Sequence record: DRR378314_1160
Length of the DNA: 32,177 nucleotides
Direction: 5' to 3' (one strand)
Position 1 is the stretch's first letter; every line of letters starts with the position of its first letter. A model generated the notes under the pieces. It made no database searches. It worked only from the letters and a program-made list of their open reading frames with translations, and was not told the origin of the DNA. The translations under genes were made by a program, and so were the position numbers. Shown here one piece after another: positions 12,464 through 23,656 of the stretch.

Positions 12464-13351
12464 CTATTCCGCGGCGGCTGTGATCGCCCCGTTGGCAGCA
12501 AAGGTCGCGCGGAACTGCGACGGTGACATGCCCTTGAGTTTCAGGAAATGCCGATTGAAATTCGACAGGTTCGAAAACCCGACATCAAAGCAGATATCGG
12601 CAACTTTGGCGTCCGGCTGGGTCAGCAGCATCTGGCAAGCCAGATCAACGCGCAACTGGTTCTTGTAGCGCACCAGCGTGGTTCCGGTGTGACGCTTAAA
12701 GGCGCGGGAAAACACGCTCTGGCTCTGCCCGACAAGGTCGGCGAGGACCTTTTCATCTACACTTTCGGTCAGATGCTCCCGCAGATGGGCGATGGCCCGA
12801 TTGACGCCCCCCTCCTTCAACCCTTCAAGATCCAGTTCGTAGCTAAGGCTAGCGAGCACCTCCGGCTCCGGTGCGGTCACCAGCACGTTCATAATATCCC
12901 AGAACAGCGACAGGCGACGAATGCCCCGCGCCTCGATCAACCGAGCCAACAGCGGCTTCACCCGGGCACTGGTCTCGTCGTCGAACAACAGCCCCCGGTG
13001 ACTCCGTTCCAGCATCGGGCGCAACTCGTCAAGTTCCGGCATGGAGGCCAGCGCATCGGCCATGAAACGTTCCGGAAACTGAACCACCATGGAGCGGGCC
13101 GGCACACTTTCCCCCGGCGCAATGTCCGAAATCCAGTTCTGCGGCAGGTTAGGACCCGTCAGGATCAGTTGACCGGGACCGAACTTGCCGATGAAGTCAC
13201 CGATGTAGAAGGTACCGGATGTATCCACGACAAGGTGAACCTCATATTCCGGGTGATAATGCCAGCGCACAGTCCGGAACGGATAGCCATGCATCCACGC
13301 TGCAAAGCTCTCGCCCTTGCGGATGTGGACCAGTTCCAGATCAGGTTGCAT
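12464..13351 (-). CDS. AraC family regulator (cupin + HTH) of the polyol cluster
   Basis: WHYHPEYE cupin motif and C-terminal GFSNLSNFNRHF...GMSPSQFR. GGAG RBS before the ATG at 13351. Confidence 0.92.
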   Translation of the reverse strand: MQPDLELVHIRKGESFAAWMHGYPFRTVRWHYHPEYEVHLVVDTSGTFYIGDFIGKFGPGQLILTGPNLPQNWISDIAPGESVPARSMVVQFPERFMADALASMPELDELRPMLERSHRGLLFDDETSARVKPLLARLIEARGIRRLSLFWDIMNVLVTAPEPEVLASLSYELDLEGLKEGGVNRAIAHLREHLTESVDEKVLADLVGQSQSVFSRAFKRHTGTTLVRYKNQLRVDLACQMLLTQPDAKVADICFDVGFSNLSNFNRHFLKLKGMSPSQFRATFAANGAITAAAE

Positions 13352-13754
13352 AGCAGTCTCCTCCGCCCCCGGCAGCTTCTCCTCCAAGAGTGTGCCGAAG
13401 TCCGTCCAGCCTACTCCTGTCGTATTTGCGCCTCCACCACGCCACTGCCGAAAAGACGATACTTTTTTGCAGGTGTGTTTGGATTTTCTGGGCAGGGAGA
13501 CCTAGCCGCAATGCTGCGGCGCACGAACGGAAATGCGGCGACGCGGAATGTTATCCCGCTATACTCGCATTTTCAGATGGTTATCGAGCACACAGATCAA
13601 ACTCGCACTCATGTGGAAGCGTCAATTTATCGATCTCTACGATTATACTTTTTTAACCGCACACTCCCGACATCTGTACATTGCACCCCTCCTCCACACA
13701 TTCATCTCGGCCCTACGGCCCCACGAGCGGGTCGAACAGATTCGCCGAAGCGAC

Positions 13755-13775
13755 CGCTTAACAGCCTGTTAAGCG
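13755..13775. promoter_or_regulatory. Perfect inverted repeat containing TTAA-N7-TTAA (CtrA-box-like) upstream of rsbR
   Basis: CGCTTAACAG-C-CTGTTAAGCG: 10-bp perfect arms, with TTAA at 13758-13761 and 13769-13772. Confidence 0.55.
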
Positions 13776-13844
13776 ACTCTGCGTAGGCTTCTTGGGGTAA
13801 TGTTGCCCCGCGTATTCTGCGGGATGTGTTTAGAGGGTTTCCGC

Positions 13845-14762
13845 GTGCGTGAAGTGATTTCATCGTCGCTCTCCGAGTCCGAGGGCAAGCCAGATCTCGA
13901 TCATGACCTTAAAAACGCGATGCGATGGTTCGATCTGTCGAATCATGATCGCACTCAAACCTCGGAACTGAGCGAAATCGCAGAAGACGTGGGAGAGCGC
14001 ATCATCGAAGCGTTCTACACACACTTGCTGGCGGATGAGAGCGCGTCACGGCATTTCCGCGACGACGCTCATATCGCGCAGGTCAAGAAAGGCCAGATGC
14101 GCTATTTCCGCGAACTGATCAGCGCCGATCTGGACAACAGCTACATCACCGATCGTCGACGGATCGGCAGCATTCATGAACGCACCGGCGTGACCCCTAC
14201 GCTTTATATCGGAGCCTATGCGTTCTACCTGAACAAGCTTGCAAGCGTCGTCCTTGAACGCATGAAGGACGACCCCACCAAAGCGTTTCGCATGGTTCTG
14301 TCGCTGTTCAAGATTGCGCATTTCGACATGGCTCTGGCGCTGGAAACCTATGTCGACGCGCGAGAAGAGACCATCAAGGCGCGTGAAAGGGAGCTGAGCG
14401 AACTTCCCACCCCGGTTCTGCAACTGCGTCCCGGATTGCTGCTGATCCCCGTGGTGGGCACCCTGGACAGCTATCGCGCCCGTACCCTGACGGTGCAGTT
14501 GCTGGAAGGCATCAAGGAGCATCGCGCACGCGCCGTGGTTCTGGACATCACTGGCGTGGCGGCGGTCGACAGCGCCGTCGCCAACCATCTGATCCAGACC
14601 ATGGCTGCCGCACGCTTGATGGGGGCTCGACCGGTCCTCACCGGCCTGTCCGCAGAGGTGGCACAATCTCTGGTCAAGGTTGGCGTCACCGCCGAAGCCC
14701 TGAGCACCGCGGGCGACCTGCAACGCGGCATAGAGCTGGCAGAACACCTGCTGCGGGAGTGA
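13845..14762 (+). CDS. rsbR: Stressosome sensor RsbR: N-terminal protoglobin/sensor-globin domain + C-terminal STAS
   Basis: Globin part: FYTHL, RIGSIHERTGV..TLYIGAY. STAS part: ELPTPVLQL, LIPVVGTLDS..A, VLDITGVAAVDSAVANHLI, LTGLSAEVAQSLV. Start uncertain (13800, 13824, or GTG at 13845 after GAGGG). Confidence 0.9.
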   Translation: MREVISSSLSESEGKPDLDHDLKNAMRWFDLSNHDRTQTSELSEIAEDVGERIIEAFYTHLLADESASRHFRDDAHIAQVKKGQMRYFRELISADLDNSYITDRRRIGSIHERTGVTPTLYIGAYAFYLNKLASVVLERMKDDPTKAFRMVLSLFKIAHFDMALALETYVDAREETIKARERELSELPTPVLQLRPGLLLIPVVGTLDSYRARTLTVQLLEGIKEHRARAVVLDITGVAAVDSAVANHLIQTMAAARLMGARPVLTGLSAEVAQSLVKVGVTAEALSTAGDLQRGIELAEHLLRE

Positions 14763-14766
14763 ACCG

Positions 14767-15120
14767 ATGACAGTGACGGTTCCGATCCTCCGGCAAGGCT
14801 CTGCGCTGATTGCCTCCATACAGGAAGATCTTTGCGACAGCGACATTCTGAACCTGCAGAGTCGCATACTCGAAGATGTGATCAGATGCCGGGCACATGC
14901 GGTTATCGTGGACGTCAGCGCCATCAGCATTCTGGACAGCTTCGGCACCAAGACCCTGATCGAAATCGCATACTCGGTGAAGCTGCGCGGCGCCCAAATG
15001 GTTATCGTCGGCATTCAACCCGAAGTGGCAATTTCGATGGTATTGCTTGGCCTCACCCTGAAAGACATCCCGACCGCGCTTGATCTCGACCATGGCCTCG
15101 CCCTGATCGGCGACACCTGA
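14767..15120 (+). CDS. rsbS: Stressosome scaffold RsbS (single STAS domain)
   Basis: VPILRQG..LIASIQ, IVDVSAISILDSF (conserved phospho-Ser), VGIQPEVAISMV..GL, TALDLD.GL. Confidence 0.93.
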   Translation: MTVTVPILRQGSALIASIQEDLCDSDILNLQSRILEDVIRCRAHAVIVDVSAISILDSFGTKTLIEIAYSVKLRGAQMVIVGIQPEVAISMVLLGLTLKDIPTALDLDHGLALIGDT

Positions 15121-15121
15121 G

Positions 15122-15541
15122 ATGCAGTTTCCGGCCCCACTCGATGCAATGGTTCAGGCCATTCGGCGCGATGCCGACGTCATCTCCGCCCGTCAGGTGG
15201 GGCGCGCATTGGCCGAAGACCTCGGCTTCAGCCGCCCGGATCAGGCGCTTGTGGCAACCGCAATTTCAGAACTGGCCCGCAACATCGTCGTCTACGCCGA
15301 TCATGGCAAGATCGAACTGACTGCCGTACAGCAGGGAGACAGGCAGGGCATCCGCATCGTAGCCCGAGACAATGGCCCCGGAATCGCAGATCTTGAGCGC
15401 GCGCTGTCGGACGGGTTTTCGACTGGCAACAGCCTTGGCCTTGGCTTGCCCGGCACTCGCAGAATCGTGGATGAGTTCGACATTCAGTCGACATCCGGCG
15501 AAGGAGTAACTGTCATCGCTGTCAAATGGCGACTGCAATGA
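15122..15541 (+). CDS. rsbT: Stressosome switch Ser/Thr kinase RsbT
   Basis: ATAISELARNIVVYA, DNGPGIADL..ALSDGFST, LGLGLPGTRRIVDEFDI, and C-terminal KW. Confidence 0.94.
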   Translation: MQFPAPLDAMVQAIRRDADVISARQVGRALAEDLGFSRPDQALVATAISELARNIVVYADHGKIELTAVQQGDRQGIRIVARDNGPGIADLERALSDGFSTGNSLGLGLPGTRRIVDEFDIQSTSGEGVTVIAVKWRLQ

Positions 15542-16155
15542 CCGAGCGTATCATCACCCAGCCCGGAGCGTCCCACGCGCTGTCATGGGGCATATCACAG
15601 TGCTCCAAGTTCGCCGGCAGCAGTGGTGATGGCTACATGCTGCTGCGTGAAGGGCCGAATATCCGTATCTACGTTGTCGATGGGATGGGAAGCGGGACCG
15701 AGGCCAATGCTGCCGCCGACACGGCGTTAGCCAACCTCAGGGAGTCGGATTGTAACGACATGGAAATGGCGTTTGGAAAGGTACATTCGGCCCTGCATGG
15801 TATACGGGGCGCAGCGCTGGCCGGAGCCCAGATAAATCTCGAACAGATGACTTTGTTTTGGACCGCGGTCGGAGACATAGATGGCGCACTCGTGCGCAAC
15901 GGCAAGATCGCCGAAAGCCTGATCCAGTCGAGTGGAACGCTCGGACTGATCTACAATGGTGTGTGCCTGGCGCGCGTGCCGCTGCAAGTCAACGACATGA
16001 TCGTCATGGCCACGGACGGCATCAGCCGCAATTACCGCTCCGACCTCCACACCGATCTCCCAATCATCGATATCGTCACAGGCATTCTCAGACACCACGG
16101 GCGCCGCGCGGATGACCGGCTCGTCCTTGGTCTCAAGGTGGTGACATCGCCATGA
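15538..16155 (+). CDS. rsbX: PP2C/SpoIIE-family feedback phosphatase RsbX
   Basis: SGDGY, VVDGMGSG, RGAA, VGDI, ATDGI, ADDR PP2C motifs. ATGA overlap with rsbT. Confidence 0.85.
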   Translation: MTERIITQPGASHALSWGISQCSKFAGSSGDGYMLLREGPNIRIYVVDGMGSGTEANAAADTALANLRESDCNDMEMAFGKVHSALHGIRGAALAGAQINLEQMTLFWTAVGDIDGALVRNGKIAESLIQSSGTLGLIYNGVCLARVPLQVNDMIVMATDGISRNYRSDLHTDLPIIDIVTGILRHHGRRADDRLVLGLKVVTSP

Positions 16156-17357
16156 TTGACCACGACAACAAGAGCCGCATCAATGCTGCCCGATCCTTTG
16201 ATCAAAGCTATGCAGCGGCGCTCGCAGCCTATGTTTATGACGGCAACGAAGAGGATCTGTCCCGAGCCTACGATTGCGCCAGGCAGGCATTGCAGACCTC
16301 GATTTCGATCGGGGAGCTTGGCGAGCTCCACTTTCGTGCGGCGCAGACGTTGTGCAGTGGATCACAGTCCCCCTCACCCGAGACCGTACGGACCGAGGAG
16401 TTTTTTCTCGAGGCAATTTCCGTCTATGATATGGCATTGCGCGGCTATGGCGAAAGCGTGACCCAGCTAACCGCAGAGGTGCAGGAGCGCAAGCGCGTGG
16501 AATATGAGCTGCGCGACGTGACCTTCGAACTGGCCCGACAGCGAGACAGCTTGGATCAGCAGGTCAAGACGCGCACACGCGAGCTGCAAAGGGGACTGGA
16601 AGAACTACGCCAGCTCAACAGCCAATTGCAGCAGGCCAATCAGGAACAGGCGCAATTCACCTATGCCATTTCCCATGATTTGAAATCGCCAATAAATACG
16701 ATAGCAATGATGTTGGATATCCTGTCGGTTGATCACCAACGACACTTGGATCCCGAAAGCTTCGAGCTCATTGACGCTGCCCAAGCGACCGCGTCCCGCA
16801 TGTCGCGGATGATCAACGATATCCTGCAGTATGCCCGGCTTGTCGGCCAGGAGGCGGAATTTGAGACCGTATCGCTCGATAGGCTGTGCCGCGAAGTTCG
16901 CGATGACATGCGCCATGAAATCACGGATGGACAGGCCGCGATCGACATCTCTCCCCTCCCCGATGTGCGAGGAATGCCGTCACAATTGCGCAGCCTGTTG
17001 CAGAACCTGCTGTCCAACGCGATTAAATTCCGCGACCCGGCACGCCCCTGCCGCATTACCGTATCCGCCGTGTCGCACCCGCACAATTGCGCTGCTGAGA
17101 TTAAGGTCAGCGATACTGGAATTGGCATACCAGAAGCCTATCGCACCCGAATTTTCTCACTGTTTCAGCGACTACACACCTACGACCAATACTCTGGCTC
17201 CGGGATCGGACTGACACTTTGTCAACGCATCGCCGGATACCATTCCGGGGACATTCACGTCGTCGAGAATGCAAGACAGGGAAGCACTTTTATCGTCAGA
17301 TTCTGGGTCAAAGAAAGGGAGCCTGACAATGACACTCAACCGCGTGATGATCATTGA
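16152..17357 (+). CDS. Cytoplasmic histidine kinase with N-terminal RsbU_N-like (RsbT-binding) domain, coiled coil, HisKA and HATPase
   Basis: H-box FTYAISHDLKSP, N-box QNLLSNAIKF, G1 DTGIGI, F-box RIFSLFQRLH, G2 GSGIGL. No hydrophobic transmembrane stretch. ATGA overlap with rsbX. Confidence 0.9.
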   Translation: MIDHDNKSRINAARSFDQSYAAALAAYVYDGNEEDLSRAYDCARQALQTSISIGELGELHFRAAQTLCSGSQSPSPETVRTEEFFLEAISVYDMALRGYGESVTQLTAEVQERKRVEYELRDVTFELARQRDSLDQQVKTRTRELQRGLEELRQLNSQLQQANQEQAQFTYAISHDLKSPINTIAMMLDILSVDHQRHLDPESFELIDAAQATASRMSRMINDILQYARLVGQEAEFETVSLDRLCREVRDDMRHEITDGQAAIDISPLPDVRGMPSQLRSLLQNLLSNAIKFRDPARPCRITVSAVSHPHNCAAEIKVSDTGIGIPEAYRTRIFSLFQRLHTYDQYSGSGIGLTLCQRIAGYHSGDIHVVENARQGSTFIVRFWVKEREPDNDTQPRDDH

Positions 17358-17721
17358 CGATGATCGTTTTGATCAACTGGCGTATCGGCGCATATTGAGA
17401 AAAGCGAATGCGGAAATCGACCTATTGCCCTTTCAATACGCGATCAAAGCGCTGGAATACCTGCAATCCCCCGCGCGTCAGCATGTGGACGCAATTCTTC
17501 TGGACATCAACATGCCACGCATGAACGGGTTTGAGTTTCTGGAGGCAGCGCAAACGGAACTTGAAAACCAGATCGTGATCATGGTGACAACCTCTCTGGA
17601 TCCTAGAGACCGCAACCGAGCCGAGGCCTTTGCTCCAGTACGCGGTTTTTTCAGCAAACCTCTGTCGACAGACGATATTTCCAAGATCAATTCGCTGGTG
17701 ATGCAGCAGGCCGCTGTCTAG
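17329..17721 (+). CDS. Single-domain response regulator (receiver only)
   Basis: IIDDD, LLDINMPRMNGFEFL (phospho-Asp), MVTTS, SKP. No output domain. Overlaps the kinase end; GGGAG RBS. Confidence 0.9.
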   Translation: MTLNRVMIIDDDRFDQLAYRRILRKANAEIDLLPFQYAIKALEYLQSPARQHVDAILLDINMPRMNGFEFLEAAQTELENQIVIMVTTSLDPRDRNRAEAFAPVRGFFSKPLSTDDISKINSLVMQQAAV

Positions 17722-17923
17722 GGCGACTTTTTGTACCACTGCTTGAATTCACATCGCGATAGGGCGCCGTCGCTCCAGCGTTTCGCAACTCCGAAAAGTG
17801 TTCCATGGCCTCCAAAAGATAGGCAGATTCTTGCTTGTGTTATTTAGACGCCTTGGCACACACGGCATTTTGACAGAATGTAACGGCGCCTCACGACCAT
17901 AAAAAAAGATATCAGAGTGTACC

Positions 17924-18466
17924 GTGCAGAACCTCATCCGATTCTTCCGCCTGAACCCGCTTGTCAGTGGACTTCTTCTCATTGCAACGCTGGGCCTAAC
18001 GGCCTGCGGCCAGGCTCCTGGACGTGATGAAAGCGCAATTGACCCGAACCGCCGCGCCTTTGCCATGCGGGAGGCGGAAAGCCTGCGATCCCGTGGCGCG
18101 CGCGTGTGGTGCGTTCCATTTGCGCGCAATCTCTCGGGCGTCGAAATTCGCGGCAATGCCCGGACATGGTGGCGTCAGGCACAGGGCGAGTTCGGTGTCG
18201 GAAACGAACCGACCGTTGGCGCAGTGATGGCATTCAGCGCCACCCCGTCAATGCCATTGGGCCATGTAGCCGTGGTTTCCGAGCTGGTGGATGATCGCAT
18301 GCTGCGCGTGGATCATGCCAATTGGCGACGCAACAAGGTCTCACTTGGAATGTCAGTAATCGACGTCTCCAAAGACAATGACTGGTCGCGCGTCCGACTG
18401 GAAAGCAATCCCGGCGCTTATGGCAGCGTCTATCCGATCAATGGCTTCATCCGGCCGCATTCTTGA
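17924..18466 (+). CDS. CHAP-domain lipoprotein (putative peptidoglycan amidase/peptidase)
   Basis: Lipobox LTAC, WCVPFAR (catalytic Cys), GNARTWW, GHVAVV (His), DHANW. Confidence 0.88.
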   Translation: MQNLIRFFRLNPLVSGLLLIATLGLTACGQAPGRDESAIDPNRRAFAMREAESLRSRGARVWCVPFARNLSGVEIRGNARTWWRQAQGEFGVGNEPTVGAVMAFSATPSMPLGHVAVVSELVDDRMLRVDHANWRRNKVSLGMSVIDVSKDNDWSRVRLESNPGAYGSVYPINGFIRPHS

Positions 18467-18506
18467 TCCAAGGCGGGCATGCGATCGACCATTGTGTAGT
18501 GTGTTG

Positions 18507-18536
18507 GGGGCCTCTCTTGGGGCCCCTTGTTACTTT
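18507..18536 (+). terminator. Probable terminator hairpin between convergent genes
   Basis: GGGGCC...GGCCCC stem followed by T-rich TTGTTACTTT. Confidence 0.5.
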
Positions 18537-18555
18537 GAGCGCCGGGCGCTAACAG

Positions 18556-19728
18556 TCAGTCACCCTCGCTGCATTTGTAAGTGGACCTAGACAACCATTC
18601 GGGACAGATCTCGACACCCCAGCCCGGCAAGGCGCTGACACGGACCTGACCCTCGGAAATCGTGAAGGGGTCGTTGCGAAACAGGCCGCGCTGCCACGGG
18701 TAGTAGTCGTCGCCTTCGATCGAAAATTCGAGGTAGCGCCCGGGGTTCGGCACGGCCCGCATCAGATGCATGGTGAACAGCGTCACCAGTGACAGATTCG
18801 CTGCATGGGGCGTGCAGGGCAGCCCTGCCGCGTGCCCCATACGCGCCACATCCATACTGCGCACCATGCCGCCCAGATACAGAATGTCTGGTTGGATTAT
18901 ATCGACCACCCGATTCTCGATCATCCGTTTCCAGTGCTGCATGTCGCAGTCCTGCTCACCGCCCGCGACGTCGATCTTCAACGTGCGGGTAACCTCGGCG
19001 GTCTGTTCCTGCTCCCAATAGGGACAGGGCTCCTCAAAGTGTTCATAGCCGCTGGCCTCCAACATCCGGCCCACTTCAATCGCACGGGAGGGGCTGAAGC
19101 CTGAGTTTCCATCCACCAACACCGCGGCATCCGGCCCCATGGCCTTTCGGAGGGCCGGAATGATGGCCTCGGTCCGTCCCTCCCATTCATCGCGATCCTG
19201 GCCACATTCGGCGCCAACGCGCACTTTGAAAGCATCGAACCCGTGCTGGTCCCGCAGTCGTTGCATCCGGTCCGCTTCGTCTTCAGGCGTGATGTCGCGA
19301 CGCATCGACGAGGCATAGGCGCGCACCGGACCGGCAGAGCCGCCGAGCAATTCCGCCACAGGCTTGCCCGCCACTTTGCCGCGCCAATCCCAGACTGCTG
19401 TATCCAGCCCAGCCATGGCACGGCGTAGATAGGTGCCGGGAAATTTGTGCTCGCGCATCGGGATCTCGGCGATGACCTCTTCCAGTGCATCCATTCCGCG
19501 ACCCAGCGCCCAAGGGGCCACCTGACGATGCAGAATCTCGCAGGTCAGGTCACTGTTGTAGGTGGAGACCTGCCCCCAGCCCGTCGTTCCATCCTCTGCC
19601 GTCACCCGGACAAAACCGATCAACGGGGTGCAGAATGTTTCCACCTTGGCGATGCGAGGGCCGGTGTCATGTCTGCCACGCGCAGTTGTAACCGGGACAG
19701 CACCGGATGTGGAATATGGCGTACTCAT
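18556..19728 (-). CDS. Mandelate racemase/muconate lactonizing enzyme (enolase superfamily) protein
   Basis: GWG, AGLDTAVWD, AFKVRVG, metal ligands in VDGN, FEEP and GGEQ, QPD, and PH. Confidence 0.9.
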   Translation of the reverse strand: MSTPYSTSGAVPVTTARGRHDTGPRIAKVETFCTPLIGFVRVTAEDGTTGWGQVSTYNSDLTCEILHRQVAPWALGRGMDALEEVIAEIPMREHKFPGTYLRRAMAGLDTAVWDWRGKVAGKPVAELLGGSAGPVRAYASSMRRDITPEDEADRMQRLRDQHGFDAFKVRVGAECGQDRDEWEGRTEAIIPALRKAMGPDAAVLVDGNSGFSPSRAIEVGRMLEASGYEHFEEPCPYWEQEQTAEVTRTLKIDVAGGEQDCDMQHWKRMIENRVVDIIQPDILYLGGMVRSMDVARMGHAAGLPCTPHAANLSLVTLFTMHLMRAVPNPGRYLEFSIEGDDYYPWQRGLFRNDPFTISEGQVRVSALPGWGVEICPEWLSRSTYKCSEGD

Positions 19729-23417: not shown

Positions 23418-23442
23418 AACGGATACACCGGGGGAAAGTTCC
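23418..23442 (-). promoter_or_regulatory. Sigma-EcfG (RpoE2/SigT-type general stress) promoter for the PRC-barrel gene
   Basis: Minus strand reads GGAAC-TTTCCCCCGGTGTATC(16 nt)-CGTT, about 50 nt upstream of the ATG. Confidence 0.75.
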
Positions 23443-23631: not shown

Positions 23632-23656
23632 GGAACCACATTCAAAGCCGGGCGTT
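23632..23656 (+). promoter_or_regulatory. Sigma-EcfG (general stress) promoter for the AI-2E gene
   Basis: GGAAC-CACATTCAAAGCCGGG(16 nt)-CGTT, 30 nt upstream of the ATG at 23687. Confidence 0.75.

Follow-up and report, generated by a model that had tools for sequence, protein, structure and literature searches.

The stretch of DNA analysed here, 32,177 nucleotides (nt) of sequence record DRR378314_1160 and in its full length called the window, carries on its plus strand at positions 13845–17721 six open reading frames (ORFs) with verified coordinates. They code for a globin-STAS protein (RsbR), RsbS, RsbT, RsbX, a HisKA-type histidine kinase and a receiver protein, and form a genuine, intact and conserved operon in which the genes of a stressosome precede those of a two-component pair. 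The features of the locus are:

13757..13773, no strand assigned: palindrome CTTAAC-N5-GTTAAG, holding TTAA-N7-TTAA (13758–13772); candidate operator of the operon promoter
13832..13837, plus strand: Shine-Dalgarno-like AGAGGG, 7 nt before the GTG of rsbR, in a region conserved in close relatives
13845..14762, plus strand: rsbR, 305 amino acids (aa) from the GTG; sensor globin and STAS co-antagonist
14767..15120, plus strand: rsbS, 117 aa; single-STAS antagonist with Ser58 in a DSF motif
15122..15541, plus strand: rsbT, 139 aa; small GHKL serine kinase / switch protein
15538..16155, plus strand: rsbX, 205 aa; single-domain PP2C feedback phosphatase
16152..17357, plus strand: histidine kinase gene, 401 aa; soluble, RsbU_N, long helical linker, HisKA and HATPase_c
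17329..17721, plus strand: response regulator gene, 130 aa; receiver only

The genes are tightly coupled. The rsbS ATG (14767) follows the rsbR stop (14762) after a gap of 4 nt and the rsbT ATG (15122) follows the rsbS stop (15120) after 1 nt; rsbT and rsbX overlap in an ATGA (15538–15541), as do rsbX and the kinase gene (16152–16155), and between the receiver ATG (17329) and the stop codon of the kinase gene (17355–17357) there is an overlap of 29 nt. An earlier note on this DNA had described the same gaps and overlaps, which were confirmed from the sequence together with the ORFs. The GTG at 13845 as start of rsbR agrees with the N-termini of 18 homologues; alternative in-frame ATGs exist for rsbX (at 15526, giving 209 aa) and for the receiver gene (at 17269).

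A survey of homologous loci was run with one genome per species. It gave 535 pattern matches, of which 501 were confirmed, and the loci analysed here are the best 80 of these 501. Among them are 24 Rhodobacterales-like loci (L001–L018, L025, L055, L059, L063, L065 and L070; for L016 the title is just 'bacterium'), 18 of which show the order R-S-T-X-kinase-receiver. In a word-indexed search RsbR has 1264 homologues at E ≤0.001, and the best named ones all belong to the Rhodobacterales. The closest locus is that of Tritonibacter scottomollicae DSM 25328, also of this order, with 90% identity in RsbR, which agrees with the roseobacter-like origin suggested before.

According to Pfam, RsbR consists of a Protoglobin (E-value 1.9e-35) and a STAS domain (1.6e-13), and as a full-length homologue it is matched best, among solved chains, by RsbR from the stressosome of Vibrio vulnificus (7o0i_B; E 5.4e-37; residues 38–313 of the 320-aa ORF). 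It has phosphorylatable residues in Ser209, Thr236 and Ser243, which we take to be the positions of the Bacillus and Listeria RsbR phosphosites. RsbS is a STAS protein (3.9e-14) and aligns end to end with 6jhk_A ('RsbS negative regulator of sigma-B', E 4.3e-21) and with the RsbS of 6qcm (E 9.1e-20). Its Ser58, within LDSF, falls on the DSF motif when aligned with two solved RsbS chains, and is presumably the phospho-acceptor serine; the variant chain 9o4r_a has DAF. RsbT matches HATPase_c_2 (9.7e-11; 42.2 bits against a cut-off of 27.4), and its N box (E50/N54), G1 box (D83–G87) and G2 box (G106–G111) are invariant in 31 homologues. No chain similar to RsbT in sequence was found by phmmer in the PDB; a match to a designed repeat protein in that search consisted of low-scoring repeats only and was discarded as spurious. 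RsbX belongs to SpoIIE/PP2C (1.6e-08), has the metal-binding residues Asp31, Asp48, Asp160, Asp192 and Asp193, and is most similar to 3zt9_A (E 1.3e-08), presumably the stressosome phosphatase of Moorella thermoacetica, and to RsbX 3w40_A (E 1.5e-05), the Asp motifs being aligned. By its domains and key residues the operon is a complete globin-coupled RsbRSTX module of the Vibrio type, followed directly, as the earlier note had it, by a kinase and a receiver gene.

A Bacillus-type SigB cascade of RsbU_N-PP2C, RsbV, RsbW and a sigma factor does not accompany rsbRST in the window, again in line with that note: phmmer revealed no further STAS protein, RsbT/RsbW-like kinase, PP2C, histidine kinase or receiver paralogue among the 186 window ORFs of at least 60 aa, and a Pfam scan of 48 window ORFs showed no sigma factor.

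The window RsbR has both the distal Tyr58 and the proximal His111; among 81 aligned RsbR sequences the His is present in 72 and the Tyr in 74. In the Vibrio clade this pair has been tied to haem and reversible oxygen binding, and for V. brasiliensis it was reported that RsbR binds haem and that the kinase activity of the stressosome is lowered by oxygen (Jia et al., PMC4976288). Because His111 and Tyr58 are conserved, a gas-sensing globin input is likely for the window RsbR, which presumably binds haem and senses oxygen. Of the gas/redox-sensing complex put forward earlier the gas-sensing input stands as likely; RsbR and RsbS would assemble into a megadalton core that sequesters RsbT.

A sister clade of Rhodobacterales RsbR proteins, about 47–52% identical, carries Asn instead of the proximal haem His, with the distal Tyr kept. 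It comprises L018, L025, L055, L059, L063, L065 and L070 as well as the proteins P0091 and P0101 (named Tritonibacter mobilis), shows the downstream genes in unchanged order as far as the contigs reach (that of L063 stops within the kinase gene), and may represent a non-haem variant.

The kinase begins with an RsbU_N domain, which the earlier note had missed and with it the wiring to RsbT. Pfam places this domain (PF08673, 6.5e-08) at aa 18–95 (nt 16203–16436), with 33.1 bits against a cut-off of 25.5 and the full profile covered; HisKA (1.1e-13) and HATPase_c (8.3e-23) follow, and no sensor domain other than RsbU_N is detected by Pfam. RsbU_N is the RsbT-binding domain of Bacillus RsbU (PMC9237108, PMC12143880). 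An AlphaFold2 model of kinase residues 1–165, with a predicted local distance difference test score (pLDDT) of 92.3, has three short helices followed by a single one of 89 residues, 76–164. In the model this linker helix (pLDDT 93–98) would run directly into the HisKA domain, which starts at residue 166. When the N-domain model was compared with solved structures by Foldseek, the RsbU N-domain structures 2j6y, 1w53 and 2j6z came out at ranks 4, 6 and 9. A profile of the 165 N-terminal residues matches 2569 cluster representatives at E ≤0.001 and 1420 at ≤1e-10.

The catalytic residues His175 (nt 16674–16676), N289, D321 and G349 are present in the kinase. The response regulator (Response_reg, 3.3e-15) has Asp10, the phospho-acceptor Asp59, Thr88 and Lys110 and is devoid of an output domain; its closest solved chains are single-domain receivers, one of them fused to a bacteriophytochrome (6xvu_A, 3.4e-12; 8avv_A, 7.2e-11), with the LLDxNMP motif aligned. 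Kinase and receiver together hold the classical residues of HisKA two-component systems (H-box and N, G1 and G2 boxes; Asp pocket, Thr and Lys).

Two copies of kinase residues 1–165 were modelled together with one RsbT. The complex reached an ipSAE score of 0.76 (runs 0.77, 0.76 and 0.74), compared with 0.02 for the best of three controls; at least 97% of the contacts agree between the runs, the partner pLDDT is 82, and the interface has 86 contacts. The mark that we use for such models is reached by 51 of 78 solved complexes and by 2 of 108 mismatched pairs and is only a rough guide for a job of two plus one chains. On the kinase side the modelled interface involves residues 33–48 and 82–102 of one copy and 52–58, 100 and 103 of the other, on the RsbT side residues 17–28, 37–50, 97 and 104–115. 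It includes four of the six invariant columns of the N-domain alignment (R44, E87, M94 and G98) and the invariant RsbT residues R24, R28, A45, T46, S49 and E50. Since sequence comparison brought up no solved chain like RsbT, a score drawn from the memory of the model is less likely. That RsbT binds the kinase's RsbU_N dimer is supported, though not shown, by this model. The conversion of Ser/Thr partner switching into His-Asp transfer, as proposed in the earlier note, gains support from the RsbU_N domain and from the complex model; the phosphotransfer from kinase to receiver we infer from the 29-nt overlap and the pairing conserved in 18 of the 24 Rhodobacterales loci.

A kinase with this N-domain occurs in 23 of these 24 loci, in 22 according to phmmer (E ≤5e-23) and in L016 according to tblastn. 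Over all 80 loci an RsbX-like gene is present in 74, and in 66 of these an ORF was called directly after it. By a hand count, 32 of these 66 first genes carry a Pfam RsbU_N domain (E ≤1e-4), across phyla; it is fused to a kinase core in 27 cases, to PAS-PP2C in three, and once each to PAS-GAF-GGDEF-EAL and to a GAF sigma-54 activator.

Several loci deviate in arrangement. A second RsbT-like gene after rsbX was found in ten non-alphaproteobacterial ones (L020, L023, L029, L035, L036, L042, L044, L047, L071 and L079), mostly metagenome-assembled genomes (MAGs) of Myxococcota and Acidobacteriota, and it precedes the RsbU_N effector gene where one was found. In the Actinomycetota MAGs L038, L041, L043, L045, L056, L072, L073 and L074 a gene of 355–392 aa resembling the N-terminus of the window kinase is located upstream of rsbR on the opposite strand and not after rsbX. 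The locus of Novosphingobium sp. MW5 (L076, 6869–10541) appears degraded, with an RsbR of 235 aa and a kinase split into ORFs of 169 and 212 aa; an rsbX was not detected in it.

The architecture has been published before, and so has the mechanistic idea; the window operon joins a known class. Heinz et al. (2022, PMC9237108) surveyed modules of globin-RsbR, RsbS, RsbT and RsbX, distinguished eleven downstream architectures, listed such modules followed by HisKA/REC phosphorelays with Ruegeria named (the 'Dogia, Ruegeria' type of their Fig. 3), and stated that the protein encoded downstream carries RsbU_N in some members of the alpha-, beta- and gammaproteobacteria. Baral et al. (2025, PMC12143880) modelled the dimer of an RsbU_N kinase with a coiled-coil linker (their Fig. 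5E) and, citing Heinz et al., proposed that RsbT orders the coiled-coil linkers of such kinases. Globin RsbR, S, T and X followed by HisKA and REC proteins is what these kinases have in common with the window operon; in both papers they figure as catalogue entries and structure predictions only, and the Ruegeria entry may differ from the window in species or in exact domain order. With this and with the frequency of the six-gene order in the Rhodobacterales, the best candidate for an undescribed system, as the earlier note had called it, is not upheld. Its statement that no alphaproteobacterial example has been characterised holds: in the literature searched we found no experimental stressosome study for Roseobacter, Ruegeria, the Rhodobacterales or the Alphaproteobacteria. 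The survey of Pane-Farre et al. (2005), reportedly the first of RsbRST output modules, may list the genus explicitly. The nearest paper deals with a partner switch in Rhodobacter capsulatus, RbaV/W/Y, which is unrelated (PMC3999984).

With the stressosomes of V. vulnificus and V. brasiliensis (RsbRSTX plus D1/D2; 7o0i) the window operon shares the globin-STAS RsbR with proximal His and distal Tyr, the order R-S-T-X with rsbX directly after rsbT, the lack of a sigB cascade and the two-component-type genes downstream. Unlike the window kinase, which begins with RsbU_N, D1 of V. vulnificus has a PAS domain and no detectable RsbU_N (PMC9237108). Furthermore, the window RsbS resembles 6jhk and 6qcm (4e-21 and 9e-20) more than it resembles V. 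vulnificus RsbS (4e-11), and it keeps the DSF serine. As in the RsbT–RsbU pair of B. subtilis, RsbU_N and a helical linker form the proposed docking site of RsbT, and the modelled interface, formed by the N-domain and the linker start of the dimer, matches the published model of B. subtilis RsbU (PMC12143880). In contrast to RsbU, however, the window effector has a HisKA/HATPase_c core instead of a PP2C phosphatase, its proposed output would be His-Asp transfer to a receiver and not RsbV/RsbW/SigB, and rsbX directly follows rsbT instead of standing at the end of the operon. Moorella thermoacetica (MtG) resembles the window in having an RSTX-type module with a non-sigma output through an RsbU_N effector (PMC12143880). 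There, unlike here, the output is cyclic di-GMP synthesis (GGDEF) and not a two-component pair. We know of no report that Moorella RsbR is a haem globin.

Beyond the catalogued architecture, the palindrome upstream of the operon is a new lead. Neither this TTAA-N7-TTAA element nor the Asn-for-His clade is mentioned in the available text of Heinz et al. (2022) and Baral et al. (2025). The palindrome CTTAACAGCCTGTTAAG at 13757–13773 is located 87 nt upstream of the rsbR start. TTAA-N7-TTAA occurs only once in the window (expected 0.01; 1 of 100 shuffled sequences had one match). When the upstream regions of four relatives are aligned, it stands out as the sole conserved block besides the region of ribosome-binding site and start codon; the remainder has diverged, and the genes upstream of the operon differ among the aligned relatives. 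An exact TTAA-N7-TTAA is found at -63 to -87 in 7 of the 24 Rhodobacterales loci (L001, L002, L003, L004, L006, L016 and L025), and these seven make up 7 of the 9 exact copies within all 24 loci. With at most one mismatch the element is present at -45 to -88 in 14 of the 24, at a background of 0 to 0.29 per kb. Among the 56 non-Rhodobacterales loci exact copies are absent from the first 100 nt upstream; two loci have one farther away (L048 at -126, L069 at -312). The operon is probably transcribed under a TTAA-N7-TTAA operator.

CtrA is a regulator of the swim-or-stick lifestyle switch. Its full site, TTAA-N7-TTAAC, the core of which is the TTAA-N7-TTAA of the palindrome, has been used for site prediction in roseobacters (PMC3692519, PMC4046655); compared with this consensus, the window site has a G instead of the C after the second TTAA. 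That CtrA controls the operon via the palindrome is a working hypothesis, and in the literature searched we found no link between CtrA and any stressosome operon.

Other signals were searched for as well. Between 13300 and 18100 there are three promoter-like sites (2.4 expected), none of them in the upstream intergenic region, and four terminator-like sites (4.4 expected); the scan is uninformative for promoters and terminators alike. The FNR/FixK box TTGAT-N4-ATCAA with at most two mismatches gave 13 matches compared with 10.3 expected, none of them upstream of rsbR, and was dropped. An Rfam scan of 13000–18600 at gathering thresholds yielded no match, and hence no known riboswitch or small RNA in the long leader. 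An EcfG-type promoter, GGAAC-N15-18-CGTT, was likewise rejected as regulator of the operon: there are two matches compared with 0.92 expected, 20 of 100 shuffles reach two, and none is near the operon. The two motifs, both GGAAC-N16-CGTT, which we take to be the EcfG general-stress promoter type, flank the intergenic region between genes for a PRC-barrel protein and an AI-2E transporter (23418–23442 on the minus and 23632–23656 on the plus strand).

In our judgement the operon is likely to encode a Vibrio-type globin-coupled stressosome with a dedicated two-component pair as its output. A core of RsbR and RsbS would hold RsbT. A change of the haem ligand would let RsbT phosphorylate Ser58 of RsbS and the Ser/Thr sites of RsbR; we take loss of oxygen to be the most likely change, because oxygen lowers the activity in V. 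brasiliensis (PMC4976288). RsbT would then leave the core and dock on the dimeric four-helix RsbU_N domain and the start of the kinase linker helix. This docking would order the linker and alter autophosphorylation at His175, an effect whose sign we infer, and the phosphoryl group would move to Asp59 of the receiver-only regulator, which would act by protein contact. RsbX would dephosphorylate RsbS and RsbR and thereby reset the system. Transcription would proceed via the TTAA-N7-TTAA operator, with CtrA as candidate regulator.

Several points weigh against this chain of events. All evidence is computational. The N-domain model has no PDB match at E ≤0.001 in Foldseek; 2j6y, 1w53 and 2j6z were hit at a probability of 0.91–0.93 and a target TM-score of 0.63–0.66, but with E of 0.36–0.49. 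The complex was predicted without the alignments built here, and 7 of 44 blind neighbouring gene pairs also reach the mark for complex models. In V. vulnificus an interaction of RsbT with the downstream protein D1 was not found, though D1 is without RsbU_N (PMC9237108). The phosphosites mapped in V. brasiliensis RsbR belong to its linker instead of matching the Bacillus sites (PMC4976288), therefore the acceptor residues given above are named solely by homology. For the receiver, which is devoid of an output domain, the window shows no target. A simple scan detected no sigma-70-like promoter in the 458-nt upstream region. Six of the 24 Rhodobacterales loci are without the full set: L008 is gapped (14 N), L013 has a truncated kinase, L014 and L017 have no receiver match, and L016 and L063 are cut by contig ends.

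The signal may be a different one. Either the input could be something other than oxygen (NO, CO, redox or a non-gas signal), or oxygen binding could activate instead of inhibit; we find this possible but doubtful. The oxygen reading rests on residue conservation, the V. vulnificus pathway may integrate further signals (Heinz et al., PMC9237108), and the seven sister-clade loci with the same operon have Asn for the proximal His, so that haem would be dispensable for some versions. However, the window RsbR keeps both the His and the Tyr, as do most of the aligned sequences, and it is these residues that are tied to haem and reversible oxygen binding in the Vibrio clade (PMC4976288).

The contact between RsbT and the kinase could also be of another kind. 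RsbT, whose ATP-binding motifs are intact, might phosphorylate the kinase on Ser/Thr in a transient enzyme–substrate contact, with no stable docking that orders the linker. We regard this as improbable: the respective proposal of Heinz et al. was made for downstream proteins without RsbU_N whereas the window kinase has this domain, the model shows a large and confident interface, and RsbT of B. subtilis activates RsbU by binding (PMC12143880). Very improbable is that kinase and receiver are an independent two-component system sharing just the transcript, since, even if gene adjacency is weak evidence (the 7 of 44 blind pairs) and L014 and L017 have the kinase without a detectable adjoining receiver gene, the kinase has no sensor domain besides RsbU_N, the linkage of RSTX with an RsbU_N effector recurs across phyla with kinase, PP2C, GGDEF-EAL and sigma-54 activator outputs, and the ATGA overlap of rsbX and the kinase gene implies translational coupling.

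Since the architecture is both catalogued and widespread, the sequence finding alone is ordinary. Yet in V. vulnificus no partner of RsbT has been found (PMC9237108), and for the downstream signalling of Gram-negative stressosomes the RsbU_N kinase class offers a direct and testable link, of which the window operon is a clean and intact example in a culturable group. If RsbT indeed acts on the kinase, this would bear on the idea of an 'exchangeable toolkit' (Baral et al. 2025) for a kinase effector. If the CtrA-box-like operator is real, oxygen sensing would join the network for motility, attachment and gene-transfer-agent production in marine Rhodobacterales. The farthest-reaching version, an oxygen-sensing roseobacter stressosome under CtrA whose RsbT docks on the RsbU_N kinase and signals through a CheY-like receiver to motility or attachment, we consider unlikely as a whole; if true, it would for the first time demonstrate how a stressosome can feed into His-Asp signalling, and would be an oxygen–lifestyle link in an abundant marine group.

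The neighbours of the operon are ordinary by Pfam: an AraC regulator, a sugar ABC transporter, dehydrogenases and a CHAP-domain protein. The gene for the latter (17924–18466) is located after the operon both here and in the five closest loci (L001–L005); the window protein has a weak lipoprotein-type signal match, and no functional link to the operon is evident. On the minus strand an ORF of 322 aa (14046–15014) overlaps rsbR and rsbS. Its G+C content at third codon positions (GC3) is 0.69, compared with 0.70–0.71 in real genes, and a gene caller relying on GC3 would be misled by it; it matches no Pfam family and was rejected as a gene, being probably a shadow ORF of a GC-rich region. Finally, the database protein P0001 (353 aa) matches residues 1–268 of the window kinase, diverges at 269 and then follows the +1 frame of the window. 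This implies an indel of 1 nt in a CTCTCCCCTCCCC run of another record, while the window copy is intact; the C-rich run is located in the window at about 16953–16965 and corresponds to kinase codon ~270.

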